Source: Betaproteobacteria bacterium (GTDB taxonomy: Bacteria; Pseudomonadota; Gammaproteobacteria; Burkholderiales; SG8-39). Taken from it: 64,000 nt of DNA. The position numbers and the translations under genes were made by a program. Every line of letters starts with the position of its first letter. Within the stretch, counting starts at the first letter, position 1. Shown in pieces: positions 10,060 to 57,834 of the stretch. Under the pieces are notes generated by a model that worked only from the letters and a program-made list of their open reading frames with translations, did not search any database and was not told the DNA's origin. The stretch is from assembly GCA_037443705.1 (NCBI GenBank), contig JBBINV010000005.1, positions 1,578 to 65,577 on the forward strand, written 5' to 3'.

Positions 10060-10803
10060 CTAGAACTGGTAGCGGCGCAGCCCGCCGTCCACCGGGATCA
10101 CGGCGCCCGTGATGTAGCGCGCGCGGGGTGAGGCAAGGAAACAGACCAGATTCGCGATGTCCTCGGGCCGGCCGTACTCGCCCACCGGGATCTCGTGCTC
10201 GGACTGCCATTGGCGGTACTCGGGCGTGTAGTTGCGCTCGATCTGCTCGCTCATGATCCGTCCGGGCGGGATCGAGTTGACGGTGATGCCGTAGCGTCCG
10301 ACCTCGCGCGACAATCCCTTCGCCCAGGCGTGCATCGCGGCCTTGGCGGCGAACGCGCCGTTCACGCCCTCGGGCTCGCTCTTTCCCGTGATGTTGACGA
10401 TGCGGCCCCATTTGCGCGCCATCATCTGCGGCAGGAGCGCGTGCGCGAGCTGGCGCTGGCGCGTGAAGTTGAGCGTGATCGCCTCCTCCCACTGCGCTTC
10501 GGTGGCGTCGAGCTTGAAGGGGCGCGAGCCGCCGGCGTTGTTGACGAGGATGTCGACGCTGCCGAGCGCCGCGAGCGCCGCGCTCGCGATCGCCTGCGGC
10601 GCGCCGGGCTGCATGAAATCCTGCTCGATGATGACGAGCTTCGCGCCGATTTCCTTCTCGAGCGCCTCGAGCCGCTCGCGCCGGCGCGCCGTCACCGCGA
10701 GGCGCACGCCCTCGACGGCGAGCGCCAGCGCGATGCCGCGACCGATGCCGGCCGATGCCCCGGTGACGAGCGCCGTCTTGCCGGCGATGCCCAGATCCAT
10801 CAC
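10060..10803 (-). CDS. SDR-family oxidoreductase
   Basis: TALVTGASAGIGRGIA (TGxxxGxG), NNAG, and a catalytic-region AAKAAMHAWAKGLS (YxxxK position). About 247 aa, classical SDR size. Confidence 0.9.
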   Translation of the reverse strand: MMDLGIAGKTALVTGASAGIGRGIALALAVEGVRLAVTARRRERLEALEKEIGAKLVIIEQDFMQPGAPQAIASAALAALGSVDILVNNAGGSRPFKLDATEAQWEEAITLNFTRQRQLAHALLPQMMARKWGRIVNITGKSEPEGVNGAFAAKAAMHAWAKGLSREVGRYGITVNSIPPGRIMSEQIERNYTPEYRQWQSEHEIPVGEYGRPEDIANLVCFLASPRARYITGAVIPVDGGLRRYQF

Positions 10804-35397: not shown

Positions 35398-36294
35398 CTA
35401 GTGCCTCGACATGGCAAGCCCCGTGATCGCCCCGACCACCACGAAGGCGCCGAGCACCTGGGTGGCGCTCATCGCCTGCCCGAGCACCGCCCAGGCCATG
35501 ATCATCACCGCGATCGGCTCGGCGTTGAGCGCCACCGTGTTGCTCGGCGCGCCCACGCGCGGCAGGACGAGGAAGAACACGATCAGCGCCGAGGAGTAGA
35601 GCGCGGACAGAAGCGCGAGCGCGAGCCACCCGGCCGCGTCGGCCGGCAGTGCGAAGCCGCCCGTGGCGGCTCCCGCCGCGAGCATGACGGCGGCGACCGC
35701 CGCCATCGTGTAGAGCGTGCGCGCGCGGCCGTCGATCTCCTTCAGCCACCGGTTCGTGAGAAGGAGCACCAGCGCGAACGTCACCGCCGCGCCGAGCGCG
35801 TAGGCGACACCTGCGCCGATCCCGGTCCAGCGCCCCGCGATGTGCCGCGCGCCGCCGATCACGTCGAGCACGAGCGCGAGTCCCGCGAGCGCCGCCGGCA
35901 TCGCCAGCGCCGCGCGCGCGCCGAGCCGCTCGCCGCCCGTCCAGGCCGAGAGCAGCGTGAACAGCAGCGGAAACAGGTTGAACACGAGCAGCGCGAGCGC
36001 CACCGGGATGCGCGCCACCGCCGAATACAGGCAATAGCTCTGCACCGCGATCAGCGCGCCCACGGCGAAAGCGCGCAGCCGCAGCCGCGGCTCGAGACCG
36101 CGCGGCACGCCCTGCAGCGCCATCAGCGCGAGCACCAGCGCCGCAGCGACCGCCGAGCGCGTCGCCACCGCGGTGAGCACGTTGGCGCCGTGATCGAAAG
36201 CGATCCGGGCGCAGACGTGGTTGGCGCCGAAGGTGATCGCGATCCCCACGAGCATCGGGATCACCAGCGCGCGCGGCAGCGGGCCCTGCGGCAT
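35398..36294 (-). CDS. DMT-superfamily (EamA-like) transporter
   Basis: About 10 predicted hydrophobic helices and two EamA-like halves. Start MPQGPLPRALVIPML at 36294; the upstream ORF extension was rejected. Confidence 0.85.
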   Translation of the reverse strand: MPQGPLPRALVIPMLVGIAITFGANHVCARIAFDHGANVLTAVATRSAVAAALVLALMALQGVPRGLEPRLRLRAFAVGALIAVQSYCLYSAVARIPVALALLVFNLFPLLFTLLSAWTGGERLGARAALAMPAALAGLALVLDVIGGARHIAGRWTGIGAGVAYALGAAVTFALVLLLTNRWLKEIDGRARTLYTMAAVAAVMLAAGAATGGFALPADAAGWLALALLSALYSSALIVFFLVLPRVGAPSNTVALNAEPIAVMIMAWAVLGQAMSATQVLGAFVVVGAITGLAMSRH

Positions 36295-36327
36295 TTGGGC
36301 GATAATAAGGGCAACCGCAGTCCCCCC

Positions 36328-36915
36328 ATGCACGGTCTCGCCCGGTTTCGCACTTTCATTCAGGACATGACGCGCCTCGCGGAGCGCCACGGCGGCGACG
36401 AGGCCGCGATGCTCGCGCAGGGCGAAGCGCTGCTGCGCGAGCTGATCGCGCACGACGACTGGCTGCCCGCGGAGTTCGCGCGGCCCTCTGCGGACTCTTA
36501 CCGCCAGTACCTGCTCCATTGCGATCCGCTCGAGCGCTTCTCGGTGGTGAGCTTCGTCTGGCAGCCGGGGCAGCGCACGCCGATCCACGACCACACCGTC
36601 TGGGGCCTCGTCGGCGTCATGCGTGGCGAGGAACTGTGCCGCGAATACTCGAACGACATCAAGCCGACGGGGGAGCATCTCGTCCTTCCCGGCCAGGTCG
36701 ACCGCGTCTCGCCCACGATCGGAGACGTGCACGTCGTATCGAACGCGACGGAAGACCGCACCGCGGTCAGCATCCACGTGTACGGCGCGAATATCGGCGC
36801 GGTGCGCCGGCACACGTTCGATCCGGCGACCGGCGCGCGGCGCGAGTTCGTCTCCGGCTACTCGAACGCCACGATCCCGAACCCGTGGGACCGCTCGCGC
36901 GAGCGCTCGCGCTGA
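36328..36915 (+). CDS. cysteine-dioxygenase-type-I-like cupin (thiol dioxygenase homolog)
   Basis: VVSFVWQPGQRTPIHDHTVWGLVGV...IHVYG cupin metal-site pattern. ATG 36328 lies 33 nt from the divergent transporter start. Confidence 0.8.
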   Translation: MHGLARFRTFIQDMTRLAERHGGDEAAMLAQGEALLRELIAHDDWLPAEFARPSADSYRQYLLHCDPLERFSVVSFVWQPGQRTPIHDHTVWGLVGVMRGEELCREYSNDIKPTGEHLVLPGQVDRVSPTIGDVHVVSNATEDRTAVSIHVYGANIGAVRRHTFDPATGARREFVSGYSNATIPNPWDRSRERSR

Positions 36916-37196
36916 TCCTCGCCGCGCCATCGGCGGCACTCGCCTGCGACGTGCCCCCGGACGAGGGCAGCATGCCGCTCAGGCGCCTGATCGCGCGCGT
37001 CAGGTTCCTGCCGGAGACCGAAAGCTGGCAGAAGTCGCTCCCGGAGGGCGTGATTGCACAATACGTGCTGCTCGTCGATTCGCCGCGGAAGATCCGCGGC
37101 CGCTGCTATTGGCCGGTAGAGATTCGAGCCGGCGGCGAGCTCTGGAAGCGCTACCTCGTGGCCGCCGACGGCGGACGCGTCATCGAGCGCCGCTGA
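36885..37196 (+). CDS. hypothetical small lipoprotein/exported protein
   Basis: High GC3. The N-terminus ...LILAAPSAALAC has a lipobox-like ALAC. GTG start overlaps the upstream gene by 31 nt. No family recognised. Confidence 0.4.
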   Translation: MGPLARALALILAAPSAALACDVPPDEGSMPLRRLIARVRFLPETESWQKSLPEGVIAQYVLLVDSPRKIRGRCYWPVEIRAGGELWKRYLVAADGGRVIERR

Positions 37197-39984: not shown

Positions 39985-40470
39985 CTATCGCGCGCGGACG
40001 TGTCGCGCGAACACTTCGCCGGTGGCGAGGTCGAGAAGGATGTTGCGATACCCGGAGCCTCCTACGCTTTCGGCATGGACATCGATCCCGATCGAGCCGA
40101 GCAGTGCTCGCGCCTGGCCCACATTGCGCTCGCCGACGCCGCTCTCGATCGCGCCGGCGGCGCCGGCAAACCGGCTCGATCCGCCGAATATCTTGGCTAC
40201 GTACTCCTTCGGCCGCGTGCCCCGCCTCAGCATGTGCTGCACAAGGATCTGGAGCGCCTCGTCGGCATAGCGGGCATCCAGCGGGACGCCATCGGCGCGG
40301 CTGCGGCCCGGCAGGAGGTAATGGCACATGCCGCCGACCCGGACCCCGGGATGCCACAGCGTGATCGCGACGCATGTCCCGAGGAGCGTGCGCAGGCGCG
40401 TCGGCGCCGCGTCGAACCAGAGCTCCCCGGGCCGGAGGTAGTGCTCGACGCCGGCGGCGAGCGCGTTCAC
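39985..40470 (-). CDS. cheD: chemoreceptor glutamine deamidase
   Basis: [12 protein letters not shown]...GGMCHYLLP...KIFGG. GTGA overlap with the cheR stop. Confidence 0.9.
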
Positions 40471-41279
40471 GGCTTCCGGTAGACCGCGGGTCCGTCGGCC
40501 GGGAGGCCGCCGTACACGCCGCTCAGGCTCTCGGAATGCCCTACGAACAGAAAGCCCCCGCGCCGGATGCGCGATTCCACGCGCTCGATCACCGCACGCT
40601 TGGTCGGCACGTCGAAGTAGATCAGGACGTTTCGCAGGAACACGACGTCGAACTCTCCCAGCGGCGGAAGCGGTTCCATGAGATTCACCTGCCTGAACGA
40701 CACCCGCTCGCGGAGCGAGCGCTCGACGAGCAGGGTCCCGCTCTGGCGCCCGACACCCTTCAGGCAATAGCGCGCCAGATAGGCGCGCGGGATGCCATCC
40801 GTGCGAGCGAGCGAATAGTGACCGGCCGCGGCGCGCTCGAGCACGCGGCTGCTGAGGTCGGTCGCGACAACCTCCCACGGCGAGCCGCTGCGGCAGTCGT
40901 CCAACACCATAGCGACGCTGTAGGGCTCCTCTCCGCTCGAGCAGGCGGCGCTCCAGACGCGGAACGGGCGCGCGGCAGAGGCCTCCCGCGCGAGGCGCTC
41001 GAGCCGGGCGAAGTGCCTCGGCTCGCGAAAGAAATACGTCTCGTTGGTGGTCAGCAGGTCGATAGCGGTCGCGAGCTCGCCGTCCCTGCCGCCCGCCTCC
41101 AGCAGCCTCACATAGGAGCGGAAATCGGGAAGTTGCAGCGCGCGCACCCGCTTGCCGAGCCGCGCGCAGACCAGGGGTTTCTTCTCGGCGCCGAGCCGGA
41201 TCCCGGCGATGCGCTGGCAGGCCTCGCGGATCCACGCAAATTCACGATCGCCGATGAGCGTGCCTGCCGCGGCGTCCAT
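40467..41279 (-). CDS. cheR: chemotaxis protein methyltransferase
   Basis: TTNETYFFREPRHF, VWSAACSSGEEPYS and VFLRNVLIYF. Confidence 0.95.
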   Translation of the reverse strand: MDAAAGTLIGDREFAWIREACQRIAGIRLGAEKKPLVCARLGKRVRALQLPDFRSYVRLLEAGGRDGELATAIDLLTTNETYFFREPRHFARLERLAREASAARPFRVWSAACSSGEEPYSVAMVLDDCRSGSPWEVVATDLSSRVLERAAAGHYSLARTDGIPRAYLARYCLKGVGRQSGTLLVERSLRERVSFRQVNLMEPLPPLGEFDVVFLRNVLIYFDVPTKRAVIERVESRIRRGGFLFVGHSESLSGVYGGLPADGPAVYRKP

Positions 41280-43860: not shown

Positions 43861-45474
43861 TCAGAATCGCTGGAATTCGGGCTCGAGCGCGAGCGGCGCG
43901 GCCGGCTCTTTCGCCGAGGGTTCGGGTTTGGACAGCTTCGCCTTGGCCTTCGCCGGTGCGGCGGCGGACCCGTGTGCCTCGAGCTTGAAGAAGCCCATCA
44001 GGCGCTGCAGCTGCTCGGCCTGACCGCTCATCTCCTCGGCGGTCGCCGCCAGTTCCTCCGAGGCCGAGGCGTTCTGCTGCGTGGCCTGGTTGAGCTGCGT
44101 CACCGCGGTGTTGATCTGCTTGACCCCCGAGGACTGCTCCTCCGAGGCCGCCGTGATCTCCTGCACCAGGTCCGAGGTCTTGGCGATCGAGGGCACCATC
44201 TCCTCCAGGAGCTTGCCCGCTTTTTCCGCGAGCTTGACGCTCGAGCCCGCAAGCTCGCCGATCTCCTGCGCCGCCACCTGGCTGCGCTCGGCCAGCTTTC
44301 TCACCTCCGCGGCCACCACCGCGAAGCCCTTGCCGTGCTCGCCCGCCCTCGCCGCCTCGATCGCGGCATTGAGCGCCAGCAGGTTCGTCTGGTAAGCGAT
44401 GTCGTCCACGATCCCGATCCGCTCGGCGATCGACTTCATCGCCGTCACCGTCTCGCGCACCGCCTCGCCCCCCTCTTTCGCCTCCTTGGCCGCCTTTGCG
44501 GCCATGCCGTCGGTCACCTTCGCGTTCTCGGCGTTCTGCGCGATCGAGCTGGTCATCTGCTCCACCGAACTCGAGGTCTCCTCGACGCTGGAGGCCTGCT
44601 CGGTCGCCGCCTGGCTGATCGACTGCGCGGTGGCGCTCACCTCCTCCGAGGCCGAGGCCAGCGCGTCCGCCGAGCCCCTCACCTCCGCAATGATCTGCGT
44701 CAGCTGCTCGTTCATCGTCTTCATCGCCGAAAGCAGCTGACCCGTCTCGTCGCGCCGGTCCACCTCGACCGTTGCCGTCAGGTCACCCTTGGCGAGCGTC
44801 TCGGCGACGTGCATCGCCCGGGAGACCGGACGGGTGATCGACAGCGTCACCCACACCGCGAATCCGACCGAGAGGATCAGCGCGGCCACGCCGAGCGCGG
44901 CCATCATGTTGCGCGCCGCCTCGTACTCGGCGCGCGCCTCCGCCGCGCTCTTCTCGACGATCTTCTTCTGCAGGTCGAGGAACGCGTTGACGTTCTCCAT
45001 GAACGTGTCGAGCGCAGGAAGCGTACGTTCCCTCATCACGCGCGCCGCCTCCCCGCGGTCGCCTTCCGCGAGCAGCCGGGCAACCTCGCCGAAGGACTGG
45101 ACGTACGGCGTCCGCGACTCCTTGATCTTGGCGATCGCCGCCTTGCCCTCGGGCAGGCGCACGAGCTTCTCGGCCTTGTCGATCGCGTGCGTGATCGCGT
45201 TCTTGTTTTGTTCGATGCGCTCCTTGATGCGCGCGACGTGCGCCGGATCGGTGGTGACGAAGAACTCCAGGTTACGGCGCGCGTTGTTGCGCGCGCCGCT
45301 GCTCACCTGCATCGCGAGCTCGGCCTTTACCCAGTCCTGCTCGGTGATGCGGGTCGTGATGCGGTCCATGTTCCGCATCGAAAGCAAGGCAACGGCGAGC
45401 AGCCCGCAGAACAGCAGCACCACCGTGCCGAAGCCGATGCCGAGCCGCACGCCAATCTTGAGGTTCTTGAACAT
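43861..45474 (-). CDS. methyl-accepting chemotaxis protein with a 4-helix-bundle (4HB_MCP-like) sensor
   Basis: [16 protein letters not shown]... TM1, a roughly 160-aa helical periplasmic domain, TM2, HAMP and the signalling domain. The C-terminus ends EFQRF. The start shares one nucleotide with the cheA stop (TAATG). Confidence 0.9.
43947..44754. repeat. 808-bp perfect direct repeat, copy 2
   Basis: Identical to 41363-42170. Confidence 0.95.
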
Positions 45475-47558
45475 TACTGCTCTCCTTTCGCAAACCGTTG
45501 ATTTCCCGAAACCAGTTTCACCAGCGCAGCCACGTCGAGAATCAGGGCGACCTCCCCGGTGCCGAGCACCGTGGAGCCCGCAATGCCGCGCAGCTGCCGG
45601 AAGAGGCTGCAGAGGGGCTTGATTACCGTCTGCTGCTCGCCCACGAGCGAGTCGACCACGAGCCCCGCCTTGCGTGCACCGCAGCGCACCACGACGACGC
45701 TTTCGCGCTTCGGTGGCGCGCCCTCGATCTCGAAGAGCTCCCGCAGCCGGATGTAAGGAAGCACTTCGCCGCGCAGGTCGAAGTGGCGGTGCGCGCCCCC
45801 GCGCGCCGCCGGGGGAAGCTCCACGCACTCGATCATCTGGTCGAGCGGCACCACGAACGTCGCGCCGCCGACCGCTACCATGAAGCCGTCGATGATCGCG
45901 AGCGTGAGCGGCAGTCGTATCGACATCGTCGCGCCCGCGCCTCGGCGCGAGGCGACCGCAACCGAACCGCGCAGCGCCTCGATGCTCTTTCTGACCGCGT
46001 CCATTCCGACGCCGCGGCCGGAAACGTTGGTCACGGTTTCGGCGGTCGAAAAGCCCGGCGCGAAGATCAGGTCGAGGATTTCCGCCTCCGTGAGGGTGGC
46101 TCCTGCCGCGACCAGACCCGCCGCATGCGCCTTGGCGAGGATTCGTTCAGGATCGATTCCGCGTCCGTCGTCGCTCACCTCGATCACGATCGCGCCGGAA
46201 TCGTGGCGCGCCGCCAGCCGCAGCGTGCCCCGCGCCGGCTTGCCGGCGGCCCGGCGTGCCCCCGGGCTCTCGATGCCATGATCGACCGCGTTGCGCACGA
46301 GATGCATCAGGGGATCGGCGATGCGCTCGACCACCGACTTGTCGAGCTCGGTTTCGCCGCCTTCGATCACGAGATCGATCTCCTTGCCGAGCTCGCGCCC
46401 GAGCTCGCGGGCAACGCGCCGAAAGCGCGCGAACGTCTCGCCGATCTGCACCATGCGGAGCTGCAGCGCGCCGTTGCGGATTTCCTCGACCAACGCCGAC
46501 ACCCCCGCTGCCGCCTCCTGAAGCTCGCCACGGCCCTCGCGCGCGAGCGCGTTCACGCCGGCGCCCGCGATCACGAGCTCGCCGACGAGGTCGATCAGCC
46601 GGTCGAGCCGGTCGGCAGCCACACGGATGAAGCGTCCGTCGTCGCTCCTGCGCTCTCTCGCGCGCGTCTGCTTGTCGAGCGCGGCGTCCACTACCGGCGC
46701 CTTGACCAGTCCTTCGCCGACGAGCGCCTCGCCGAGCAGCGCGCGTCCCTGGGTCGCGAGCGCCGCCTCCAGTTCGCCTTTGGTGAGCGCCCCGCAAGCG
46801 ACCAGGATCTCGCCGAGGCGCGTGCGCTCCTCGGGGAGCTGCTCGATCAGCGCGATGTAATCGGCGGTGCGGCTGTCGGGAGGCAGGATGCGGACGCTGC
46901 AATCGTCGCGCACGAACTTGAACGCGCTCTCGATCTGGCCGCGCTCGGCCGGGCTTTTCAGCCGCAGCTCGAAGCCGAGATAGCAGGCTTCCGGATCCAT
47001 TTCCGCGAAGCCCGGCATGGCGTCGGTGAGGACGACGAGATGGCGGACTTCGCCCAGCGTCTCCAGGTAGCCGATCACGGAGGCCGGTTCGAAGCCGTTG
47101 CGCAGTGCGTCGCGCTGGAAGCGCAGCGAGATGTGCCATTCGTCGCCCGCGCGTGTGCCACCGCGGAGCAGCGCCTCGAGCCGTGCGCGCAGCACGGATT
47201 CGCGTTCCGTCGAAACGCCGCCGTTCTCGTGCAGCAGGCCCTCGATATGGTCGCGGCACTCGACCAGCAGCGCGCTGGCCGCGGCGTCGAACGAAAGCCG
47301 TCCGCCGCGCATCGCGTCGAGCACGCTCTCCACGACATGGGTGAAGGAGACGACGCGCTCGTGCCCGAACAGGCCCGCCGAACCCTTGATCGTGTGCGCG
47401 GCGCGAAACAGCGCGTTGAGCGCGTCGGCGTTCGCGGGGTCCGCCTCGAGCCGCTGCAGGCAGCTCTCCATCTGCTGCAGCATGTCGCGACTCTCCTCGA
47501 GGAATACCTCGGCCGCGGCCTCGATCGAGAACTTCGTGGCTTCTCCGTGCTCGCCCAT
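45474..47558 (-). CDS. cheA: chemotaxis histidine kinase
   Basis: Hpt domain ([16 protein letters not shown]), dimerisation domain, HATPase (DDGRGID, GRGVGMD) and a CheW-like C-terminal domain. Confidence 0.95.
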
Positions 47559-47561: not shown

Positions 47562-47858
47562 TTACTCCTTCGGGGCCGTCCAGCGGTCCTCGCAGCGGTA
47601 GGCGCGGAGCAGCGCCGCGACGGGTGCGCTCTTCGCGCCGATGACCGCACCTGCGCCGAGCGAAGCGAGCTCGCGCCGGACCAGTTCGAGGAGCTGGAAC
47701 CCCGAGCTGTCGAACTCGGTCGCCTGCGACAGATCGAACCGAACCGGAGCGCCGCCTTCTACGACGCTGGCGAGCGCTTCCTTCATTCTCGCCGCGTGGT
47801 AGATGTCGGCCGAGCCGCTCACGCGCACAGTGTCTCCATCCCGGGTGATCTCGATCAT
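47562..47858 (-). CDS. STAS-domain (anti-sigma-factor-antagonist-like) protein
   Basis: 98 aa: MIEITRDGDTVRVSGSADIYHAARMKEAL...FDLSQATEFDSSGFQLL. Sits between cheY and cheA. Confidence 0.8.
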   Translation of the reverse strand: MIEITRDGDTVRVSGSADIYHAARMKEALASVVEGGAPVRFDLSQATEFDSSGFQLLELVRRELASLGAGAVIGAKSAPVAALLRAYRCEDRWTAPKE

Positions 47859-47869
47859 GTCGTTCTCCT

Positions 47870-48238
47870 TCAGGGCAGCACCAGCCGCGACACCGCATCC
47901 AGCATCTGCGGGGGCTGGAACGGCTTCACCATCCACGCCTTCGCTCCGGCCGATCTTCCTTCGGCCATCTTCGCTTCCTGCGACTCGGTGGTGAGCATAA
48001 TGATCGGCGTGAACTTGTAGGCGGGCATTCCTTTCAGCGCGCGCACCAGGGCGATGCCGTCCATGTTCGGCATGTTTACGTCGCTGATGACCAGGTGCAC
48101 CTTGCGCCCATCGAGCTTCGCGACCGCGTCCTTGCCGTCGCAGGCTTCGAGCACGTCGTAGCCCGCGCCGCGCAGCGTGAGCGCCACCACCTGCCGCAGC
48201 GACGCCGAGTCGTCCACCACCAGAATCGTCTTCGCCAT
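47870..48238 (-). CDS. cheY: single-domain chemotaxis response regulator
   Basis: ILVVDDS...LVISDVNMPNMDG...KAWMVKPF. Confidence 0.95.
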   Translation of the reverse strand: MAKTILVVDDSASLRQVVALTLRGAGYDVLEACDGKDAVAKLDGRKVHLVISDVNMPNMDGIALVRALKGMPAYKFTPIIMLTTESQEAKMAEGRSAGAKAWMVKPFQPPQMLDAVSRLVLP

Positions 48239-48247: not shown

Positions 48248-49306
48248 TCAGAAAAAGGTGACAGCGGAGCCGGCGCCGGCGCTCGCCGGTGCCGCGACGG
48301 AAGCGGCGTGGTTGCGATGCTGCTCCTCGGTCGTGTAGCCGACCCGCATCTCGGCCAACCACGCCTCTGCCGACACCTGCTCGCCGGGGCGCCCGAGCGC
48401 GCCGGTCACGCGCTCGGCGAGGCGCGCGATGTCGTCGCGCGCCTGCGCCAGGATCTGGCTGGTGCGATCCTGGAACTGGAGCTGCACAATGACCTGCTCG
48501 ATCGCCTCGCGAATGCCGCGGCTCTCCGCGAGGAGCGCCTGTCCGGAGCTCTTGAGCCCCTCGACTCCGTTCTTGAAGCGCTCGAGCACCGCGCGGATGG
48601 TCGCTTCCGCGCCGCCGAGCGCGCGATGGTCCTCGCCCGCCGCATGCGCAGCTGCCGCTTTCGCCGCGAGCATCGCGGCGCCGATCGTCTCGGCCTTCTC
48701 GCGCATGCGTGCGCCAGTCTGCGCCGAGCGCCCCGAGAGCGTGCGCACCGCGTCGGCAACCACCGCGAAGCCACGCCCGGACTCGCCGGCGCGGGCCGCC
48801 TCGATCGCGGCGTTGAGCGCAAGCAGGTTCGTCTGGCTGGCAATGCTCGAGACCTCTATTGCCATTTCCTTCAGCTCCCCGGCGTAGTCGCCCAGGCGCT
48901 GCACGTCCGCGGCGATCGCGTCGCGCGCGCGCATCGCCTCCTGCAGCGTCCGCGTGAGCGCGGCCAGGTCCTGCTCGCAGGCGCCGAGCAGCGCGACGAC
49001 TCCCGCGCCGTCGCCGTGCATCGCACCTGCGGTCCGCTCGGAGGCACGCGCCGTCGCTTCGATCCGGCCGATCAGTTGCGTGAGGTTCGCGACGAGCTCG
49101 CCGATGGCGCGTTCGGTCTGGCTGCGCGAGGATTCGATGTTTCGCGCCCACACGGGGAGCACGTGGGCGCAGAGCCGGTCGAGCCCCTCGATCCCGGGCC
49201 GCGGCGAGGGCGCCGGGGCCTCCTGCGCCGGAGCGTTTCGCGGCGCATCGAAGAACAGCGACACCAGAGGCGTCCAGAAACCCGATCCCGCGTCACTTGC
49301 CTTCAT
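48248..49306 (-). CDS. soluble (no TM helix) MCP-signalling-domain protein
   Basis: [36 protein letters not shown] hairpin tip with no hydrophobic segments. ATG 49306 has GAGG 5 nt upstream; the ORF-track start at 49360 is less likely. Confidence 0.8.
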
Positions 49307-49511
49307 TCTTGCCTCGTACGTTCTTCGTCCGGCGCGGCGGTATGCCGCGCTGCCGGTCATCGTCTTCGGGGCCAGGCGGAATCAGGGCCTGGTGTGCTCG
49401 CCGCGGTGTCAGAGCGGCGACGGGAGATCCGCTCCCGGTGATGGGCAGACTAGCAGCCGGGAACGAGTCGCAGTATGGGGGTTAGCGGCAGGAATCCGCC
49501 GCTGTTAAGGG

Positions 49512-52056
49512 TCAGGCGGCCAGCGCGCGAACGGCCGGGGGCCGAAGCTCGAGCTCCGCCCGCACCACGCCTCCTGCGCCGCGAACCTCCAGGCGACCGC
49601 CCGCGCCCGGCAGCAGCGTGCGCGCGAGCGCGAGACCCGCACCCTGCCCGCCTGCGGGCGCGAACGCACCCGGGTTCTCGACGACGAGGCGCACACCCTC
49701 GCGCCATGCCTGCAGGCCCACGGCGACGCCTGCGTCGGCGCGCGCGCGGTGCTTGACCGCGTTCCACACCAGCTCGTTGATGACGAGCGCGACCGGCACC
49801 GCCTCGCCTTCGGCGAGCGCCCAGCGAGCTTCGCCTTGCGGCTCGTAGCGGATGTCCGCCGCGGAGATCGTGCGCAGCGTGAACAGGATTTCGAGCAGCA
49901 GCGGCTCGAGGCGCACATCGTCCGCGCCGCGCCCGTGCAGGCCGTGTACCTTGGCGATCACCTGGATCTGGCTGATCGCCGCGCGCAGCGCCTCCTCGAG
50001 CTCGGGACTGCGGGCGATGCGCGTCTGCAGCAGCCCGGTCACGCCCTGCAGGCTGTTCTTGATGCGGTGGTGCACCTCGCGCACCAGCGCGTCTCGCTGG
50101 CGACGGGCTTCCTCCAGCCGAACTGCCTCGCCGCGCTTGGTCGCGGTGATGTCGTGGCCGACCGTGATGATCCCGCCGTCGCCCAGACGTCGCTCGTGGA
50201 TCAGGATCCAGCGGCCGTCCGCGTAGCGGATCTCGAACGGTCCCGAAAGCTTGCGCCTGCGCTCGAGACGTTCCGCGACCCATTCCGCCTCGCGGCCGAT
50301 CGCATCGGCGATGTAGCCGGCGGCCACGGCGGCCCGGAGATGGTCCTCGAAGCGCCGCCCCGGCTCGAGCGTCTCTGCGATCCCTGCGTTGCAGGCGATC
50401 ACGTGCCGATTGGCCAGCACGATGCGATCGCCGGCGTCGCAGATCACCACCGTCTCGGCCAGATCGTCGATCGCTGCCCGCAGCCGCTCGTCGGCTTCGC
50501 GCGCCCGTTGCTCATTCCGCACCTGCTCGGTGACGTCGGATCCCAGGTTGCGGTAGCCCAGGAAGTTGCCGCGCTCATCAAAAAACGGCATGCCGCTCAC
50601 GTTGATCCAGGCCTCGCCGCCGGGATCCCTTCTCAGGAAGCGGAAATTGCGAAACGGCTCGCGCCGCGCCAGCTTCTCGAGGTGCGACTTCCACGGCTCC
50701 TGAGTGAAATCGGCTCCCGGGGGCGGCAAGGTCGAGCCGGTTCTTGCCGATGTACCAGCCGGGGGACACGCCGCGCGCCGCCGCGATCGAGTCCGAAACC
50801 CAGGTATAGCGGCCCTCGGCGTCCTGCTCCGAGAGCATGTCGCCGCTCGCAAGCGTGAAGTCCCGGAACCGGGCTTCGCTCTGCGCCAGAGCGAGCTCCG
50901 CTTGCTTGCGCTGCGTGATGTTGACCCCCACGAAGAGCGTGCCCCCGTCGGGCAGGCGCTGCTCGGTGACCATCAGCCAGATCCCGTCCTGGCGCCGCAC
51001 CTCGTATGGGCCTGTGGGCGCGCGCCTCGCCGCCATCCGCCGCTCGAGCCAGCCCTCCTCGTTGCCCACCGCATCGGGGAACAGGCCGTGCGTCACCGCG
51101 GCGCGCAGGAACTCCTCGAACCGGCGACCCGGCGTGATCGATTCCGCGACCGGCGCGTTCAGCTCGGCAAACCACCGGTTGACCAGGATGAAGCGGTCGT
51201 CCGCATCGCACAGCGCCACCGCCTCCGAGAAATGCTCGATCGCGGCCCGCAGCCGCTCGTCGGCCTCGCGCGCGCGCTGCTCGCTCCGGATGCGCTCGGT
51301 AATGTCGGTGCTGCTGTTCCGGTAGCCGAGGAACCGCCCCGCCTCGTCGAAGAACGGCACGCCGTTCACCGAGATCACCGCGCCTCCGTCCGGCCCCGCC
51401 GTCACGTAGCGGAAATCCCGGAACGGCTCGTGCCTCTCGAGTGCCTCGAGGTGCGACTTCCACGGCTCGCGCGCGAGGTCGGCGCGCGGCGCGATCACTT
51501 CCACGCGCCTGCGCCCGACGTACCATTCCGGAGGCACCCCGCGGCGGCGCGCGCCGACCGATTCCGAGACCCACGTGTAGCGGCCGTCGGCGTCGATCTC
51601 CGCGAAGAAGTCCCCGTTGGCGCGCGCGAAATCGCGAAAGCGCGCTTCGCTTTGCGCAAGGGCGCGCTCGGCGCGCTTGAGCTGTGTCACGTCGCGCCCC
51701 ACGCCGCTGTAGCCGCGGAAGCGGCCCGCGCGATCGAAGATGGGCACTCCGCTCACGTTGACCCATCGGACCGTGGCGTCGTCGGCCGGGTACGGCGCCT
51801 CGAAGTCCCTGAATGGCTCGTGCCGCTCGAGGGTCTCGCGGTGCGCGCGCCAATGCGGATCGTCCGGGTCGGCGCGCGCCACTTCCCAGCGCGTCTTGCC
51901 GATCAGCGAGGCAAGCGAGCGCCCTATCCTCTCGGGCGCGCCGTCCGAGTACCAGACGAAGCGAAAATGCCCGTCCTGCTCCCAGAACCAGTCCGCGCTC
52001 AGCGCCAGCAGCTCGCGCAGGCGCCCGGCTTCGAGCGCCGGGTCTTCCTTCCTCAA
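49512..52056 (-). pseudogene. multi-PAS HisKA_2 sensor histidine kinase, reading frame broken by 1 nt in a homopolymer (or sequencing error)
   Basis: ORFs 50578-52056 and 49512-50852 overlap. Deleting one G from the G5 run at 50719-50723 joins them into ...KNRLDLAAPGADFTQEPWKSHLEKLARREPF.... This parallels ...RRRVEVIAPRADLAREPWKSHLEALERHEPF... in the preceding repeat unit. The C-terminus has HHRIKNSLQ (HisKA_2) and an HATPase domain. TTG start overlaps the upstream stop. Confidence 0.75.
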
Positions 52057-52664
52057 CCGCGGTTCCCGGGCGAGTTGAGCGTGTCCGCGGCGCGCAGCAG
52101 GTCCTCGGCGACCTCGCTCACGCGCCGGCGCTGGGCGCGCGCGCTGTCGCGCAGGCGCGCGAACGCGGCGTCGCGGTCGATGCGAAGGCGCTCCATGAGG
52201 ATCCCGATCGCCATGCTCGTCTCGCGGCCCTGGCGCAGCGCGGTGCTCAGCTGGTCGCGCGTGCTGCGAAGCTCGAGCAGCTCCTTGGCCCGTGCGAGCG
52301 CGGACTCGAGCGCCGGCACGAGGCTGGCCACGTCGATCGGCTTGATGAGGTAGCCGAGCGCGCCGTGGCTCGCGGCCTCGCGCACGATATCGAGGTCGCC
52401 GTAGGCCGACAGGATCAGAGTGCAGCAGGCGAACTCGTCGAGCAGCCGGCGCGAGAGCTCCGCCCCCGACATCCCCGACATGCGCATGTCTACGAGCGCG
52501 AGGTCGAACGGCTGCTCGCGCGCGCGCTCTATCGCCTCCTCGGCGCTCGAGGCGCTGGTCACGCGGTAGCCGGCGCGGCTCAGGCCCTCGCCCAGGGTGG
52601 CGAGAACCAGCCGGTCGTCGTCGACCAGCAGCAGGTTCGCTATGACGGCGGCCTTCGAGTTCAT
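52053..52664 (-). CDS. REC-ANTAR response regulator (RNA-binding antiterminator type, PdtaR/AmiR-like)
   Basis: REC domain (LLLVDDD...LALVDMRMSGMSG...LIKP) followed by ANTAR (LRSTRDQLSTALRQGRETSMAIGILMERLRIDRDAAFARLRDSARAQRRRVSEVAEDLL). ATGA overlap with the upstream kinase. Confidence 0.9.
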   Translation of the reverse strand: MNSKAAVIANLLLVDDDRLVLATLGEGLSRAGYRVTSASSAEEAIERAREQPFDLALVDMRMSGMSGAELSRRLLDEFACCTLILSAYGDLDIVREAASHGALGYLIKPIDVASLVPALESALARAKELLELRSTRDQLSTALRQGRETSMAIGILMERLRIDRDAAFARLRDSARAQRRRVSEVAEDLLRAADTLNSPGNRG

Positions 52665-53623
52665 GTCCGTGCGAGAACGGGCGCGTGCAGTTCGAGCGTC
52701 GCCACGATATCGGCCCCGCGCTGCCCGATATTGAGGGATGCGCCCTCGAGCGGCAGCAGCGACCGGACCAGCCCGAGACCGGCGCCGTTGCCGACGCCGG
52801 AGGCGAAGTCGAACCCCTCCGGCACGCGCCCGGGGTTCGTCACGCGCAGCGTAGCGGCTTCCCCTTCGCGCGACAAGTGTGCGCGCACCGGGGCGCGCGC
52901 GGCGCGGTCGCGGTGCTTCACCGCGTTGGTGAGCAATTCGTGGATGACGAGGGCGATCGCCACCGCCTCGCCCTCCGAGAGCACGATCCTGCGCTCCGGC
53001 GGCACGCGCACCTCGATCCCGGCGCCGTGCAGCTCCTGCACCGAGCGCGCGACCGCCTCGAGCACTTCGCACAGTTGGACGTTCACCTTGCCGGGCTGCG
53101 CGTGAAGCCCATGGATCGTCGCGATCGCGCTCACCTGCCCGATCGCCTCGCGCAGGTACGGCGCGCACTCGGGCGAGCGGCTCGCGTGCATCGCAAGGAG
53201 CCCCACCACACCCTGGAGATTGTTCTTTATCCGGTGGTGCACCTCGCGGATCAGGGTGCTGCGCTGCATCGCCTCGCCGAGGCGCTGTTCGGTGACGTCT
53301 TCGCACAGCCCGAGCATCAGCTCGGCGCCGGCGCGGCGCGCAACGCGGAAGCCCCGAGTCCGGATCCAGCGGACCTCGCCGTCGGCGCGCCGGATCGGGT
53401 ACTCGACCTCCCAGCCGCCGTTCGGCGCTTGCGGCCGCTCGATAGCCGCGCGCACTCGTTCGAGATGCTCGGGCAGCACCTGCTTCGTCCAGGACAGCGG
53501 GTCGGCGTAGAGCGTATCGGGCGGCACGCCCCACATGCGCGCATAGGCGGGACTGACGTAGTAGAAGCGCATGCCGTCCACTGAGCGGATCCAGACCACG
53601 TCGCGCATCCGATCGGCGACCAT
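52661..53623 (-). CDS. PAS-HisKA_2 sensor histidine kinase
   Basis: PAS domain (DVVWIRSVDGMRFYYVSPAYARMWG), H-box REVHHRIKNNLQGVVGLL and an HATPase domain. ATG 53623 is the first ATG; an upstream non-ATG start is possible. Confidence 0.8.
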   Translation of the reverse strand: MVADRMRDVVWIRSVDGMRFYYVSPAYARMWGVPPDTLYADPLSWTKQVLPEHLERVRAAIERPQAPNGGWEVEYPIRRADGEVRWIRTRGFRVARRAGAELMLGLCEDVTEQRLGEAMQRSTLIREVHHRIKNNLQGVVGLLAMHASRSPECAPYLREAIGQVSAIATIHGLHAQPGKVNVQLCEVLEAVARSVQELHGAGIEVRVPPERRIVLSEGEAVAIALVIHELLTNAVKHRDRAARAPVRAHLSREGEAATLRVTNPGRVPEGFDFASGVGNGAGLGLVRSLLPLEGASLNIGQRGADIVATLELHAPVLART

Positions 53624-53673
53624 GCGGAACCATTCGCCGATCTGCGCGTCGTCCTCCGCGGGGAAGGCGGGGC

Positions 53674-56178
53674 TCAGGCCCCCCTCCTCGGCAGCGCGAA
53701 GCAGAAGGCCGCACCTTTGTCGCGCGCCGCGCTCGCCCACACGCGGCCGCCGTGGCGCTCGATGACGCGCCGCACGATCGCGAGGCCCAGGCCGTTCCCG
53801 GGGAACTCCTTCTCGCTGTGCAGCCGCTGGCAAAGGCCGAAGAGCTTGGGCGCGAACGCCATGTCGAACCCGACCCCGTTGTCCTGCACGCAGACCACGG
53901 TCTCGTGCGGCCCGGAGCCCCGCGGCTCGAGCGCGATCTCCGCCGGATCGCGCGGCGCGGAGTACTTCCAGGCGTTGTCGAAAAGGTTCGCGAGCACGAT
54001 GCGCATCAGCCCGGGATCGGCGAACGCGCGGATGCCGGGCTCGATTTTCCAGACGACGTTCCTCGCCGGCTCTCGCGCGCGCAGCTCCTCGGCGAGCTGG
54101 CGCGCGAGCGCCGAAAGGTCGATCTCGCGCGGCCGCAGCTCCTCGCGCCCCAGGCGAAACAGCTTCAGCATGTCGCCGATCAGCGCCCCTACGCGCTCGC
54201 TCGAAGCCGCGATCCGCTCGAGGTAATGGCGCGCCTCGGCCGGCATGGCTTCGGCGTGCTCGCGCGCGAGCAGCGTGCTGAAGCCCGCGATCGCGCGAAG
54301 CGGCGCGCGCAGGTCGTGCGACAGCGAGTACGAGAACGATTCGAGCTCCCGGTTGGCGGCCTCGAGCTCGCGGGTGCGCTCGGCGATCCGCGAGCCGAGC
54401 TCGGCGCGCGCGGCGGCGGTTTCCTGCTGCAGCCGCCAGCGCTCGATCGCCATCTCGGCGAGCGAGCCGCAGCGCCGGATCGCCGCCCATTCGGATTCGC
54501 TCGGCGCGCGCGCTTCCGGCAGGTAGAGCTCGATCACGCCGAGCGCGCGGCCGCTTCCGTTCAGGATCGGGACCGACCAGCAGGCGCGCACCTGCTCGAG
54601 CGCGGCGAGCCCGGGATTGCCGCGCCACAGCGGGTCCTCCGGCCCCTCGAGCGAGATCACCGGCTTCATCCCGTAGAGGGCCCAGCCGCAGGTCCCGGTC
54701 TCCGGCCCGAGCGCAAGCCCCACCATGCGGCGGCGGTAGTCCTCGGGCAGGCTCGGCGCGGCGAGAAGTCCCACCTGAGGCCCTTCGGCGCCCGTGGCGA
54801 GGATCGCGCAATGCGCGTCCCGGCACGCGGATTCGAGAAACGCGGCGATCCGGCTGAGGACATTGTCCAGGCGCGTGCCGTGCGCCACGGCGGCGAGCAG
54901 CGCGTCGAGCTCATGCGCACCGCCCTGGCCGCGCCCATCCGGCTCGCGCGCGACGACGACCATGAAATCCTTGCCGAGCCAGCGCGAGGCCGACACCTTG
55001 AGCGCGACGCGGACCTCGCTGCCGTCCTTGCGCCGCCAGGCCGCCTCGCCGGGATAGCTTTCGGTTTCGCCGCGCACCACTCGCTCGTAGCGCTTGCGGC
55101 GCTCCTCGTCGCCGAGCGCGGGATGGATGTCGCGCGGGCCGAGCATCAGCAGCTCCTCCCGCGTGTAGCCGAGCAGGCCGCAGGCGCTCGCGTTGACGTC
55201 GACGAACCGCAGCGTGCGCACGTCGACGAGGAACACCGCCTCGTCGATCGTGTCCACCGCCTGGCGCAGCCGGCTCTGCGATTCCTGCGCCGCGACGCGC
55301 TGCGTCGCCTCGTTGAGCGCGACCATCAGGCGGCTCGCGCCGTGGTAGCGCAGCTTCTCGATCGAGACCTCGAAATGGCGGGGGCCGGCGCCGGTTTCCG
55401 CGCGCAGCAACCAGTCGCGCACCGCGAGACCCTCGTCGCGCACCTGCGCGGCGAGGCGCGCGAGCCCCGGCACCGGCACCAGGTCGTCGGCGAGCTCAAG
55501 GCCGACCAGGTCCTCCGGAAGCACGCCGAACAGGTTGCAGAAGGCGCGATTCGCGGACTCGATCGCGAGCCGCTCGTCGAGCACCACGATTCCGAGCGGG
55601 CGCGTGGCGACGATCTGCGCCGCGTAGGCGTGCGCCTCGTCGAGCGCCCGGCGGTCCTCGTAGTGGTACGCCTCGAGCGCGATCTCCATGTCGAACAGCA
55701 CCATCTTGAGCAGCGCATCGAGAACCAGGATGAACCTTTCACCGGTGCCGATCTCGCGGGGAAGCCACCGGATCAGGCACGCGAGATATTTCCGGTACGC
55801 GCCGATGTACCACTTAGGCTCGACTCCCATCCGGTAGTGGATCAGTCCGATCCGGAGGCGACTTTCGACGTAGGCGCGGTCGATTCGGCCCTCCACAAGC
55901 GCGTCGAAATAGGCGCGGCGAGTCCGGCGCAACTCGGCCTTGCCCTCGGGGTCCTGCGGCAGACGGGCGCTCGTCTGAGGAAACGAGTAGAGGAAGTCGT
56001 AGAACTCGCCGATCATGGCGTCCCGCAATCCGTGCAAGACGTCCCGCTCCGCGCGCAAGCGCGCGAGATCGTCGTCCGTCAACTCCAGGTATGCAAGCCG
56101 CGCGGCAAGCTCCGCCTCGTCCAACCCGATCTCGTCCCGCACCCTGTACGCCGCCACATCGCGAATCGGCTCGTCCAC
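53674..56178 (-). CDS. globin-coupled sensor histidine kinase (globin-PAS-PAS-GAF-HisKA-HATPase)
   Basis: N-terminal globin-sensor signature (IGEFYDFLYSFP...AYFDALVEG..DRAYVESRLRIGLIHYRMGVEPKWYIGAY). H-box FSYSLSHDLRAPL and G-boxes DNGVGFD, GNGLGLA. The GTG at 56178 lies 7 nt after AGGAGG; the ORF-track TTG at 56184 is too close to the SD. Confidence 0.85.
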   Translation of the reverse strand: MDEPIRDVAAYRVRDEIGLDEAELAARLAYLELTDDDLARLRAERDVLHGLRDAMIGEFYDFLYSFPQTSARLPQDPEGKAELRRTRRAYFDALVEGRIDRAYVESRLRIGLIHYRMGVEPKWYIGAYRKYLACLIRWLPREIGTGERFILVLDALLKMVLFDMEIALEAYHYEDRRALDEAHAYAAQIVATRPLGIVVLDERLAIESANRAFCNLFGVLPEDLVGLELADDLVPVPGLARLAAQVRDEGLAVRDWLLRAETGAGPRHFEVSIEKLRYHGASRLMVALNEATQRVAAQESQSRLRQAVDTIDEAVFLVDVRTLRFVDVNASACGLLGYTREELLMLGPRDIHPALGDEERRKRYERVVRGETESYPGEAAWRRKDGSEVRVALKVSASRWLGKDFMVVVAREPDGRGQGGAHELDALLAAVAHGTRLDNVLSRIAAFLESACRDAHCAILATGAEGPQVGLLAAPSLPEDYRRRMVGLALGPETGTCGWALYGMKPVISLEGPEDPLWRGNPGLAALEQVRACWSVPILNGSGRALGVIELYLPEARAPSESEWAAIRRCGSLAEMAIERWRLQQETAAARAELGSRIAERTRELEAANRELESFSYSLSHDLRAPLRAIAGFSTLLAREHAEAMPAEARHYLERIAASSERVGALIGDMLKLFRLGREELRPREIDLSALARQLAEELRAREPARNVVWKIEPGIRAFADPGLMRIVLANLFDNAWKYSAPRDPAEIALEPRGSGPHETVVCVQDNGVGFDMAFAPKLFGLCQRLHSEKEFPGNGLGLAIVRRVIERHGGRVWASAARDKGAAFCFALPRRGA

Positions 56179-56349
56179 GCGCAACCCTCCTCCCGGCCGG
56201 TGCCGGCTCCTTCGTCTGCATCAAGCGGGGACAGGGCCTGACTCAAGGATCGGCGGCCGGCTGGTTCGGGGCGGCCGCCGTACGTGCTCCTTCTGGGTAC
56301 CATAATGCTAGAGGAAACCCGCTTGATCAACGTCAAGAACTGCACGCAA

Positions 56350-57834
56350 ATGCGACCTCTTTTCATCCTATGGGTCGCCTTGCTCGGCGCGCTCGGCGGC
56401 TGCGCGGGGACCGGAGAGTTCTTCCGCGATGCCGGAGCGCCGCCCGCGCCGCAGCCGCGCGCGCTCGCCGGCTGGCCCTATCGCGAGCTCTGGAACGGCG
56501 TCGTGTTCAACGGCGCGAAGGTCGGGTTCACGCGCCTGGCGCTCGCGCCCGCTGCGGACGCGCCCGGGCGCTGGGATATCGAGTCCGAGGCGGCGCTCAG
56601 GATCCGCTTCCTCGGCATCGACAAGCGGGTGAGCCTGCGCGCGCGCGACCGCGTGCGCGACGATCTCACGCTCGAGCGCTTCGACTACGCCTACGAGCTC
56701 GACGGCAGCCCGCTCGCGGTGTCGGGCGAGTCCGATGGACGAATCATGGACATGAATGTCGCCGCCAGCGGAGTGCGAGAGGAGAAACGGCTTTTTCTCC
56801 AGTCCCCCGTCTATCCGCAAAGCGCGCTCGCGCTGCTCCCGGTGGCGAAGGGGCTCGCGGTGGGGCGCACGGACCGGTTCACGGTGCTCCAGGGCGAGAC
56901 GCAGGCGCTCGTGGAGACGACCCAGAGCACGCTCGCGTACGAGACCAGCACCCTGTTCGAGGGTCCGGCGTTCAGGATCGAGACCCGGTTGCTGGGCCTC
57001 GAGACCACGACCTGGATCGCGCCGGACGGACGGCCGGTGTTCGAGCTCGCGCTCCACGGCACCCTGATCTCGGCGCTCGAGCCCGAGGACGAGGCGAAGC
57101 GATACCTGGTGGCGGCGAGCCTCAACAAGGACGAGGCGCTCGTCGAATTCAGCCTCCTGCGGACGCCGCCCCTCGAGAATCCACGGGCGATCTCGCGGCT
57201 GGAGATCGAGCTTTCGGGCCTGCCGCCGGGGCTCGCGGTGCCAAGCGAGCCGGGCCAGGAATGCCGGCGCGAGGATTCGCGGGTGAGCTGTATCGTCGAC
57301 CGTCAAGCCCCGACCCTTTCCCGACCCGACGGCAGGCGGGCCAGGTATCTCGAGCCCACCTTGTCGGTCCCGAGCACCCACGGCGAGATCGCCTCGCTCG
57401 CGCGGAGCATTGCCGGCAGCGCGTCCGACGGCGAGGAACGGCTCGCAAGGCTGCTCGCGTGGATTGACGCCAACATCGCCAAGGAGGCGGTCGACGTGTT
57501 CACCGCGGCCGACGTGCTGCGCGAGCGCCGCGCCGAATGCCAGGGAAACGCCTACCTGCTCGCGGCATTCGCGCGCGCGCTCGGGCTTCCCGCGCGCGTG
57601 GTGAACGGCATCGTGTACTCCGGGACGCACGGCGGGTTCCTCTACCACACCTGGAACGAGATCTGGCTGGAGGGCAAGGGCTGGCGCGCCGCCGACCCTA
57701 CCTTCGGCCAGGCGCGAGCGGACGCCACGCACCTCAAGCTCCTGGAGGGGGAGTCGCCGCTCGAGCTCGCGCCGCTCGTCGGCATGGTCGGGAAAGCGCG
57801 CATCGACTCGGTCCGCGCCCTCTCGCGCTGGTAG
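56350..57834 (+). CDS. transglutaminase-like domain lipoprotein
   Basis: Lipobox LGALGGC, plus a C-terminal transglutaminase core (RRAECQGNAYLLAAFARALGLPARVVNG...HTWNEIWL...ADPT = Cys-His-Asp). Confidence 0.8.
   Translation: MRPLFILWVALLGALGGCAGTGEFFRDAGAPPAPQPRALAGWPYRELWNGVVFNGAKVGFTRLALAPAADAPGRWDIESEAALRIRFLGIDKRVSLRARDRVRDDLTLERFDYAYELDGSPLAVSGESDGRIMDMNVAASGVREEKRLFLQSPVYPQSALALLPVAKGLAVGRTDRFTVLQGETQALVETTQSTLAYETSTLFEGPAFRIETRLLGLETTTWIAPDGRPVFELALHGTLISALEPEDEAKRYLVAASLNKDEALVEFSLLRTPPLENPRAISRLEIELSGLPPGLAVPSEPGQECRREDSRVSCIVDRQAPTLSRPDGRRARYLEPTLSVPSTHGEIASLARSIAGSASDGEERLARLLAWIDANIAKEAVDVFTAADVLRERRAECQGNAYLLAAFARALGLPARVVNGIVYSGTHGGFLYHTWNEIWLEGKGWRAADPTFGQARADATHLKLLEGESPLELAPLVGMVGKARIDSVRALSRW

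Follow-up and report, generated by a model that had tools for sequence, protein, structure and literature searches.

Analysis of a 64,000-nucleotide (nt) stretch of the Betaproteobacteria contig JBBINV010000005.1 (the window; 70% G+C) revealed an operon on the minus strand with the gene order K1, K2, RR and K3. K1 and K2 encode histidine kinases, RR encodes a response regulator with a receiver (REC) and an RNA-binding ANTAR domain, and K3 is a frameshifted kinase gene. K1 was predicted to be a haem-globin O2/NO/CO sensor kinase encoded in the same operon as K2 and the regulator, and K2 and RR were classified as a PdtaS/PdtaR-like pair; both assignments were well supported. Hairpins with a C-rich loop were found in leaders beside regulators of the RR family. 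The sequence comparisons gave moderate support to the view that this regulator family acts through the hairpin as its putative site, which would make the K1 operon autoregulated and would probably bring chemosensory genes under the same control. The full proposal, that a PdtaS/PdtaR-like system controls its own operon and probably the neighbouring chemosensory cluster through C-rich-loop hairpins, was judged about equally likely to be right or wrong.

The features of the first three genes were as follows:

53674-56178, minus strand: K1, globin-coupled sensor histidine kinase, 834 aa, GTG start
about 55654-56121, minus strand: Protoglobin domain of K1 (Pfam)
55297-55599 and 54964-55272, minus strand: two PAS domains of K1 (Pfam)
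54442-54870, minus strand: GAF domain of K1 (Pfam)
54148-54342, minus strand: HisKA domain of K1, with His621 (Pfam)
53686-54018, minus strand: HATPase domain of K1 (Pfam)
52661-53623, minus strand: K2, PAS_3 + HisKA_2 + HATPase kinase, 320 aa, with His130 (Pfam)
52053-52664, minus strand: RR, REC-ANTAR response regulator, 203 aa (Pfam)
52308-52631 and 52095-52256, minus strand: REC and ANTAR domains of RR

Comparison with related loci showed conservation of the K1-K2-RR operon among the closest relatives. In the window, 4-nt overlaps were confirmed at ATGA (52661-52664) and TTGA (52053-52056). Locus L164 (regulator 91% identical) carried the K1 kinase (88%), K2 (81%), the regulator and K3 (57%), with a 4-nt overlap of K1 and K2. 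In L001 and L167, which were 99.7% identical where they overlapped, a globin-K1 gene (57%), K2 (about 60%) and the regulator (71%) were followed by an enoyl-CoA hydratase gene with no K3, and K1 and K2 again overlapped by 4 nt. The order was also kept in L171 (K1 GAF and kinase regions 47 and 65%, K2 46%, regulator 68%). In L165/L166 (regulator 76%), K1 was lost and a 63-codon open reading frame (ORF) was left (L165, 4378-4569). This ORF (MDKLVRDPTLRVV...) starts with MDKLVRDP, as compared with VDEPIRDV in K1, and ends in an ATGA overlap with the start of K2; it appears to be a K1 remnant that has been retained for translational coupling.

Pfam analysis of K2 gave a HisKA_2 match at E 5.9e-13, and its nearest solved relatives were the LOV-HK and EL346 kinases. 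RR matched Response_reg (7.7e-23) and ANTAR (7.4e-13), its best solved matches being 6wsh (E 9e-26) and PdtaR, Rv1626 (1s8n, E 2e-20); the residues for phosphorylation (D15/D16, D59, S86 and K108) were present. A genome scan with RR found beta- and gammaproteobacterial homologues of 45-57% identity, and a HisKA_2 kinase was encoded directly upstream of the homologue in 10 of 11 loci. The same arrangement was seen in L164, L165, L167, L171 and L173. Relatives of RR included Burkholderiales, Sulfuricella, Nitrosomonadales, Thiobaca and Thiorhodococcus, and the family had 2107 members at E <= 1e-30. Since 10 of the 11 loci had the pair and the family is of this size, a HisKA_2 kinase with an ANTAR regulator is ordinary in proteobacteria. 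The first-pass annotation, made from the sequence alone, was right about the PdtaS/PdtaR-like logic of a HisKA_2 kinase with a REC-ANTAR regulator; it had presented this as a logic described in actinobacteria that appears here in a proteobacterial-looking genome, but the combination is not unusual in proteobacteria, as shown by these counts and by the characterised kinase and REC-ANTAR system GnfK/GnfR of Geobacter (PMC2995071). K2 is probably the cognate kinase of RR, judging from the domain matches and this gene adjacency.

The HisKA_2 kinases linked to ANTAR regulators (K2 at about 52750-52800, K3, and those of L002-L012, L083, L085 and L091) lacked the Asp of the G1 box throughout the family. 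They carried xNPGxl-P.GFDF where DxGxG was expected, kept the N and G2 boxes, and thus resembled HWE-type kinases. The degenerate G1 box of K2 and K3 was considered as a sign of a pseudokinase, and no conclusion was drawn since it is family-wide and HWE-like. In L005, a Legionellaceae genome bin, a REC-ANTAR homologue with no adjacent kinase followed flhA-flhF-fleN-fliA in the usual place of cheY (4235-10600).

A hairpin was found in the leader of K1:

56220-56242, minus strand: leader hairpin GUCAGGC-CCUGUCCCC-GCUUGAU, 7 bp including 2 G.U pairs, 9-nt C-rich loop

It ended 41 nt before the K1 start codon, a GTG located six bases after GGGAGGAGGG, and was the top match in the window of the covariance models R1 and R2 (27 bits). 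Homologous hairpins occurred at the same spacing in L001 and L165. Members of the family have a stem of 6 bp that closes a 9-nt C-rich loop, CCnGnCCCC, and occur in leaders on the sense strand. In front of the globin genes adjoining a HisKA_2/ANTAR pair, the distance to the start codon was about 40-75 nt. Among 13 sequences, 96% of the cells were paired, a percentage that is biased upward for the first nine hairpins, which came from a hairpin search and were also analysed separately for covariation, but not for the later matches. Both sides changed in 5 of the 6 pairs. The covariation score of the 13 sequences was 0.80, as compared with 0.31 +/- 0.06 in shuffles, and it collapsed when the partners were slid. 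The arms varied (GCAAC/GUUGC, CAGGC/GCUUG and CGCAGC/GCUGCG) while the loop sequence was kept. In the inner five stem pairs, the exceptions to Watson-Crick pairing were all G.U on the sense strand, and the C-rich loop lay on the sense strand of the downstream gene in every instance.

R1 and R2 also detected copies outside the set of sequences from which the model had been made:

L091, 81-103: just after the regulator gene, 25 bits
L002, 2747-2769: 21 bits
L006, 10751-10773: 19.4 bits
L009, 10880-10902: 17.7 bits
L008, 10875-10897: 14.0 bits
L165, 4313-4335: 42 nt before the start of the K1 remnant, 20.5 bits
L165, 9638-9660: 17.8 bits
L173, 7849-7871 and 7928-7950: tandem pair, 17.6 and 19.0 bits

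The matches outside the model set fell in regulator-adjacent leaders, and only 3 matches of at least 19 bits were found in about 0.85 Mb of other loci. Chance occurrences of the generic arm pattern CAGGC-N8-9-GCYTG are frequent in G+C-rich DNA, and only the covariance model including the loop is specific. A possible second G+C-rich hairpin, CGGCGGCC...GGCCGCCG with a C-rich loop containing CCCCGAACC, was seen by eye at 56253-56285 (minus strand) and had no R2 score; the K1 leader may hold a tandem hairpin pair.

A metagenome scan with the globin domain of K1 gave 80 loci. The hairpin was present at 7 of 7 globin genes adjoining a HisKA_2 kinase, six of them with an ANTAR regulator in view; in the seventh, L001, the contig ends inside K2. 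Among the remaining globin loci, it was found just in L082 (at a contig edge) and L095. The output domain of the adjoining globin protein was not constant. In L083, L085 and L092, a globin-PAS-PAS-GGDEF-EAL gene followed the kinase and regulator genes on the same strand; in L091 and L104, a gene of this kind was divergent from an operon of a REC-PAS(n)-HisKA_2 kinase and the regulator. These loci are more distant from the window, and their globins fall in the same clade as that of K1. A GGDEF-EAL protein cannot phosphorylate a receiver domain, and the link between globin and regulator is therefore not simply phosphotransfer, as these five loci show. Elsewhere, the gene after the pair was often also a signalling gene, encoding a hybrid kinase, an EAL protein, a GAF-PAS-HisKA kinase, a methyl-accepting chemotaxis protein (MCP), a REC-GGDEF-EAL protein or a PAS-GGDEF-EAL-CZB protein.

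Upstream of many globin-sensor starts, at about 50-65 nt, a (GCAA)n tract was observed in the context ATATTGCGCAAGCAAGC...GCCTGA, with 2 to 9 copies between similar leaders (L098, L103, L106, L107, L113-L115, L119-L121, L123, L126-L128, L131, L133, L134, L136, L139, L142 and L161). The tract looks like a phase-variable simple-sequence repeat; it was not present in the window.

The assignment of K1 was based on its domains and on comparison with solved sensor globins. All the domains named in the first-pass annotation, a globin-coupled-sensor N-terminus, two PAS domains, GAF and HisKA/HATPase in an 834-aa kinase, were matched by Pfam, as were those of K2 (PAS-HisKA_2) and of the REC-ANTAR regulator. 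The Protoglobin match (PF11563, E 1.7e-34) covered residues 22-177 of the 836-aa ORF, and HisKA and HATPase_c were matched at 2.1e-12 and 2.8e-20. The globin domain matched those of HemAT (1or4, E 4e-10), AfGcHK (5ohe, E 1.5e-6) and GsGCS (2w31). Tyr60 and His114 of K1 aligned to Tyr70 and His123 of HemAT, which we take to be the distal Tyr (B10) and the proximal His (F8), and both residues were invariant in the two closest homologues, P0002 and P0003. Alignment with homologues showed that the H, N, G1 and G2 boxes of the kinase were kept as SHDLRAPL (His621), NAWKY, DNGVGF and GNGLGL. K1 is rare, with a single full-length homologue, P0002, at 57% identity; the globin domains closest to that of K1 (41-46% identity) belonged to globin-PAS-GGDEF-EAL proteins. 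The neighbourhood of the globin kinase P0003 was inspected for a cognate regulator, and none was found, just a DUF8198 gene.

Downstream of K3 on the same strand, Pfam analysis identified a chemosensory cluster with MCP, CheY, STAS, CheA, MCP, CheW, MCP, CheD and CheB genes, in agreement with the first-pass description of the operon as lying directly upstream of such a cluster. Two weaker hairpins were located in the spacer between K3 and the first MCP gene:

49371-49420, minus strand: tandem hairpin pair between K3 and the MCP gene, R2 ranks 2 and 3 for the window
49398-49420, minus strand: hairpin CGCCGC-UCUGACACC-GCGGCG, R2 14.5 bits
49371-49393, minus strand: hairpin CCAGGC-CCUGAUUCC-GCCUGG, R2 13.5 bits
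45474-49360, minus strand: start of the chemosensory cluster, candidate regulated output (Pfam)
48248-49360, minus strand: soluble MCP, with a later start near 49306 possible
47870-48238, minus strand: CheY (Pfam)
47562-47870, minus strand: STAS protein (Pfam)
45474-47558, minus strand: CheA (Pfam)

The gap between the two model matches was 4 nt. L165 (about 9611-9660) shared the tandem pair, with CGCCGU-CCGGACACC-ACGGCG followed by CCAGGC-CCUGAUCCU-GCCUGG; the loop-closing pair of its first hairpin was changed in a compensatory way, and the pair lay upstream of a gene whose first domain is a CheA-type Hpt domain. Related regulators were also adjoined by chemosensory or flagellar genes in L005, L007, L165, L174 and L175. 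The two spacer hairpins, which had been dismissed in the first-pass annotation for want of AxxGxx loops, and the stronger hairpin before K1 belong to a conserved hairpin family tied to the regulator family.

ANTAR regulators are widespread; to our knowledge, their RNA targets are known for just a few systems, and all of these are dual-hexaloop targets. The defined target consists of two stem-loops with hexaloops carrying A1 and G4 (PMC8164766). Canonical AxxGxx dual hexaloops numbered 3 in the window, as compared with 2.65 +/- 1.8 expected by chance, and none was in a leader. In 16 related loci, 10 were found and 5.1 were expected, with none in regulator-adjacent spacers. The canonical dual hexaloop was therefore rejected as the target of RR here, and the search for this motif suggested in the first-pass annotation gave chance-level results with none in the relevant leaders. 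That annotation had also stated that no RNA target was evident in the window, which holds for canonical hexaloops but not for the candidate hairpins at 56220-56242 and 49371-49420. Rfam gave no match in the whole window at gathering thresholds, nor in 49250-56450 at E <= 1. One chance-level dual-hexaloop match (36897-36935, minus strand) lay at the very start of the ORF 35398-36939 (minus strand), and could be in a 5' leader if the true start is further downstream.

In the proposed mechanism, K2 would phosphorylate RR, as suggested by their conserved adjacency, and K1 would probably provide a second input to RR. Phosphorylated RR would most likely act on the sense-strand leader hairpin with its 6-bp stem and 9-nt CCnGnCCCC loop. 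From the position of the hairpin 41 nt before K1, the whole operon would be autoregulated, and the weaker tandem hairpins before MCP-CheY-STAS-CheA would extend control to the chemosensory pathway. Control may be exerted either at termination or at translation.

Several results weigh against this mechanism. The hairpins before K1 and MCP do not fit the two-hexaloop ANTAR target (PMC8164766), and many sites are single rather than tandem. The spacer hairpins were individually not significant (14.5 and 13.5 bits; E 0.4-0.8), and the K3-MCP spacer (49361-49511) was rejected as an unusually stable fold (z = -1.3 against shuffled sequence). No terminator-like site was found after the hairpins in either leader, where prediction is weak at 70% G+C. 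An anti-Shine-Dalgarno switch, in which the CCCC of the loop would pair with the G-rich ribosome-binding site, was not consistently supported; minimum-energy folds of the leaders of the window, L082, L083, L085 and L092 paired the C-run with the G-run, but the site was released in only some cases when the hairpin was imposed on the fold. No hairpin was found near the orphan regulator homologues of L172, L174 and L175, which have no adjacent kinase. The dimerization and histidine phosphotransfer domain of K1 is HisKA, whereas the kinases conserved beside the regulator family are HisKA_2. To these is added the upward bias in the pairing of the first nine hairpins.

Three alternatives were considered. 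In the first, K1, K2 and K3 would all phosphorylate the single RR, so that O2/NO/CO and PAS-sensed signals would be combined to control antitermination, with dual-hexaloop targets of the canonical type in other parts of the genome; this was considered doubtful. One REC-ANTAR gene lies among three kinase genes with overlapping stops and starts, the K1-K2-RR order is kept in L164, L001/L167 and L171, and the H, N, G1 and G2 boxes of K1 and all the phospho-acceptor residues of RR are intact. However, K3 is frameshifted in two assemblies, and the kinase family conserved beside the regulator is HisKA_2, not HisKA. In addition, the globin partner in L083, L085, L091, L092 and L104 is a GGDEF-EAL protein, with no phosphate transfer, and the canonical dual hexaloops of the window were at the chance level and absent from leaders. 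The first-pass view of three kinases served by one regulator was partly supported: K1 and K2 were intact and in one operon, and may both act on the regulator, whereas three is an overstatement, as K3 is frameshifted.

In the second alternative, K1 would be a regulated product and not an input. The HisKA_2/ANTAR pair would control neighbouring sensor genes through the hairpin, with globin kinases, globin-GGDEF-EAL enzymes, other kinases and chemosensory genes all as targets, and K1 would signal to an unlinked regulator. The hairpin always directly preceded the globin gene, regardless of the output domain and of the orientation of the gene relative to the regulator (same strand upstream or downstream, or divergent). 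Other genes led by a hairpin were unrelated to phosphotransfer with the regulator (a hybrid kinase in L002, a GAF-PAS kinase in L006 and a TonB-dependent receptor in L173), and the globin kinase P0003 had no adjacent regulator. Nevertheless, K1 and K2 overlap by 4 nt in L164 and L001/L167, which suggests that two proteins with a joint function are produced in a coupled manner, and no receiver domain was found in the window beyond RR, CheY and CheB. This alternative was considered unlikely.

The third alternative, considered highly improbable, is that the inverted repeat is a DNA operator for some transcription factor or another structural element that co-occurs with ANTAR through shared locus ancestry: the repeat is perfect or near-perfect and lies near probable promoters, it is accompanied neither by a terminator nor by canonical ANTAR features, and several loci are relatives of one another, but variable, covarying arms around a conserved spacer are the opposite of a dimeric operator, the G.U exceptions and the C-rich loop keep to the sense strand, no other gene is common to these loci, and the hairpin was also present in the adjacent leader of loci that had been retrieved solely through the regulator.

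The fourth gene of the operon, K3, was found to be a K2 paralogue broken by a frameshift, and is a pseudogene or a split gene:

50578-52056, minus strand: K3 5' ORF, 492 aa, PAS domains only; its TTG start overlaps the RR stop codon
49512-50727, minus strand: K3 3' part in the +1 frame, with the rest of PAS_4, PAS_7, HisKA_2 (His663 of the repaired protein) and HATPase (Pfam)
50719-50723, minus strand: C5 run at the frame break of K3; removal of one C gives an 847-aa protein

The second ORF, in a different frame, extended over 49512-50852 (minus strand). With one C deleted, the repaired 847-aa protein had five PAS domains, HisKA_2 (7.7e-10) and HATPase; the five-PAS HisKA_2 kinase of the first-pass annotation is therefore correct in its domains after this repair, but not as a single ORF. 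The intact homologue of L004 aligned across the break and covered residues 237-847. An assembler artefact was ruled out by the independent Logan assembly of SRR11582173 (L163), which was 100% identical over 4263 nt, split K3 identically and gave an identical 320-aa gene call for K2. The break may be a read-level homopolymer error or a true pseudogenisation. K3 contained an internal tandem duplication of the PAS_4 + PAS_7 module (gene nt 354-1012 and 1125-1781, 70% nt identity over 662 nt), and the frameshift fell in the second copy. No transmembrane segments were evident by eye in K2 or in repaired K3. K2 had one PAS domain and no GAF, K3 had five PAS domains, and the sole GAF domain was in K1.

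In the chemosensory cluster, the STAS gene, which is anti-sigma antagonist-like, sits between cheY and cheA (47562-47870, minus strand), and the CheD match of a 416-aa ORF (39985-41235, minus strand) was limited to the last 105 residues. The STAS gene and the ORF ending in CheD hint that the chemosensory pathway is non-flagellar and has a partner-switching output.

Comparison with known systems placed K2 and RR closest to PdtaS/PdtaR of Mycobacterium tuberculosis (Rv3220c/Rv1626), in which an RNA-binding REC-ANTAR regulator is likewise paired with a cytoplasmic kinase of the HisKA_2 type. NO and copper signals are both integrated by PdtaS/PdtaR, and an RNA is bound by PdtaR (PMC8131098); binding of cyclic di-GMP (c-di-GMP) by PdtaS has been reported (bioRxiv 10.1101/615575). 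PdtaS has GAF and PAS domains, whereas K2 has a single PAS. Here the kinase and regulator genes are adjacent, co-oriented and headed by a globin HisKA kinase in a host that is proteobacterial-looking, and a hairpin whose 9-nt loop is C-rich is the candidate RNA site. EutW/EutV, NasR and AmiR-type systems share the ANTAR output (6wsh was the top solved match to RR), and some of the sites found here are, like theirs, tandem stem-loops in leaders beside the regulator gene; their dual hexaloops (A1, G4) overlapping a terminator are absent here. In GnfK/GnfR of Geobacter sulfurreducens, a histidine kinase phosphorylates a REC-ANTAR regulator, which binds leader RNA (PMC2995071). This is also a proteobacterial kinase with a REC-ANTAR regulator; unlike K2, GnfK lacks a sensor domain and is encoded at a site unlinked to gnfR, and the targets are nitrogen-fixation leaders with CAGGCAANGGCGCC beside terminators (PMC2995071).

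AfGcHK of Anaeromyxobacter and HemAT resemble K1: in each, a signalling output is joined to a sensor globin that has the proximal His and the distal Tyr. K1 differs from them in the PAS-PAS-GAF region between globin and kinase, and in its operon partners, an ANTAR regulator and a HisKA_2 kinase. DosC-like globin-coupled diguanylate cyclases and phosphodiesterases have the nearest globins, and several adjoin the same HisKA_2/ANTAR pair and have the same leader hairpin; the output of K1 is a histidine kinase and not a c-di-GMP enzyme. The first-pass annotation knew of no characterised globin-coupled kinase feeding an ANTAR regulator. No paper linking a haem globin-coupled sensor to ANTAR was found in the literature searched, in line with that statement, although NO-responsive ANTAR control is already known from PdtaS/PdtaR (PMC8131098). 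No studied member of the proteobacterial HisKA_2/ANTAR family (more than 2000 members) was found in the literature searched either.

The covarying leader hairpin, which tracks the regulator family, is a concrete candidate target to test. We tentatively propose, as a possibility less likely than not, that the hairpin with the CCnGnCCCC loop is a new RNA class for the large beta- and gammaproteobacterial REC-ANTAR family. Globin and PAS kinases would then regulate their own operon and switch neighbouring chemosensory, c-di-GMP and sensor-kinase genes, and the globin sensor would be a conserved component of the circuit that exchanged its output in the course of evolution. If this is true, the GGDEF-EAL output of some lineages could feed a PdtaS-like kinase through c-di-GMP, and the HisKA output in the window could feed the regulator directly. 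Through the locus, a haem gas sensor would be connected with the post-transcriptional regulation of genes for chemosensory and c-di-GMP signalling, and globin-coupled kinases, very few of which have a known downstream partner, would gain a defined one.

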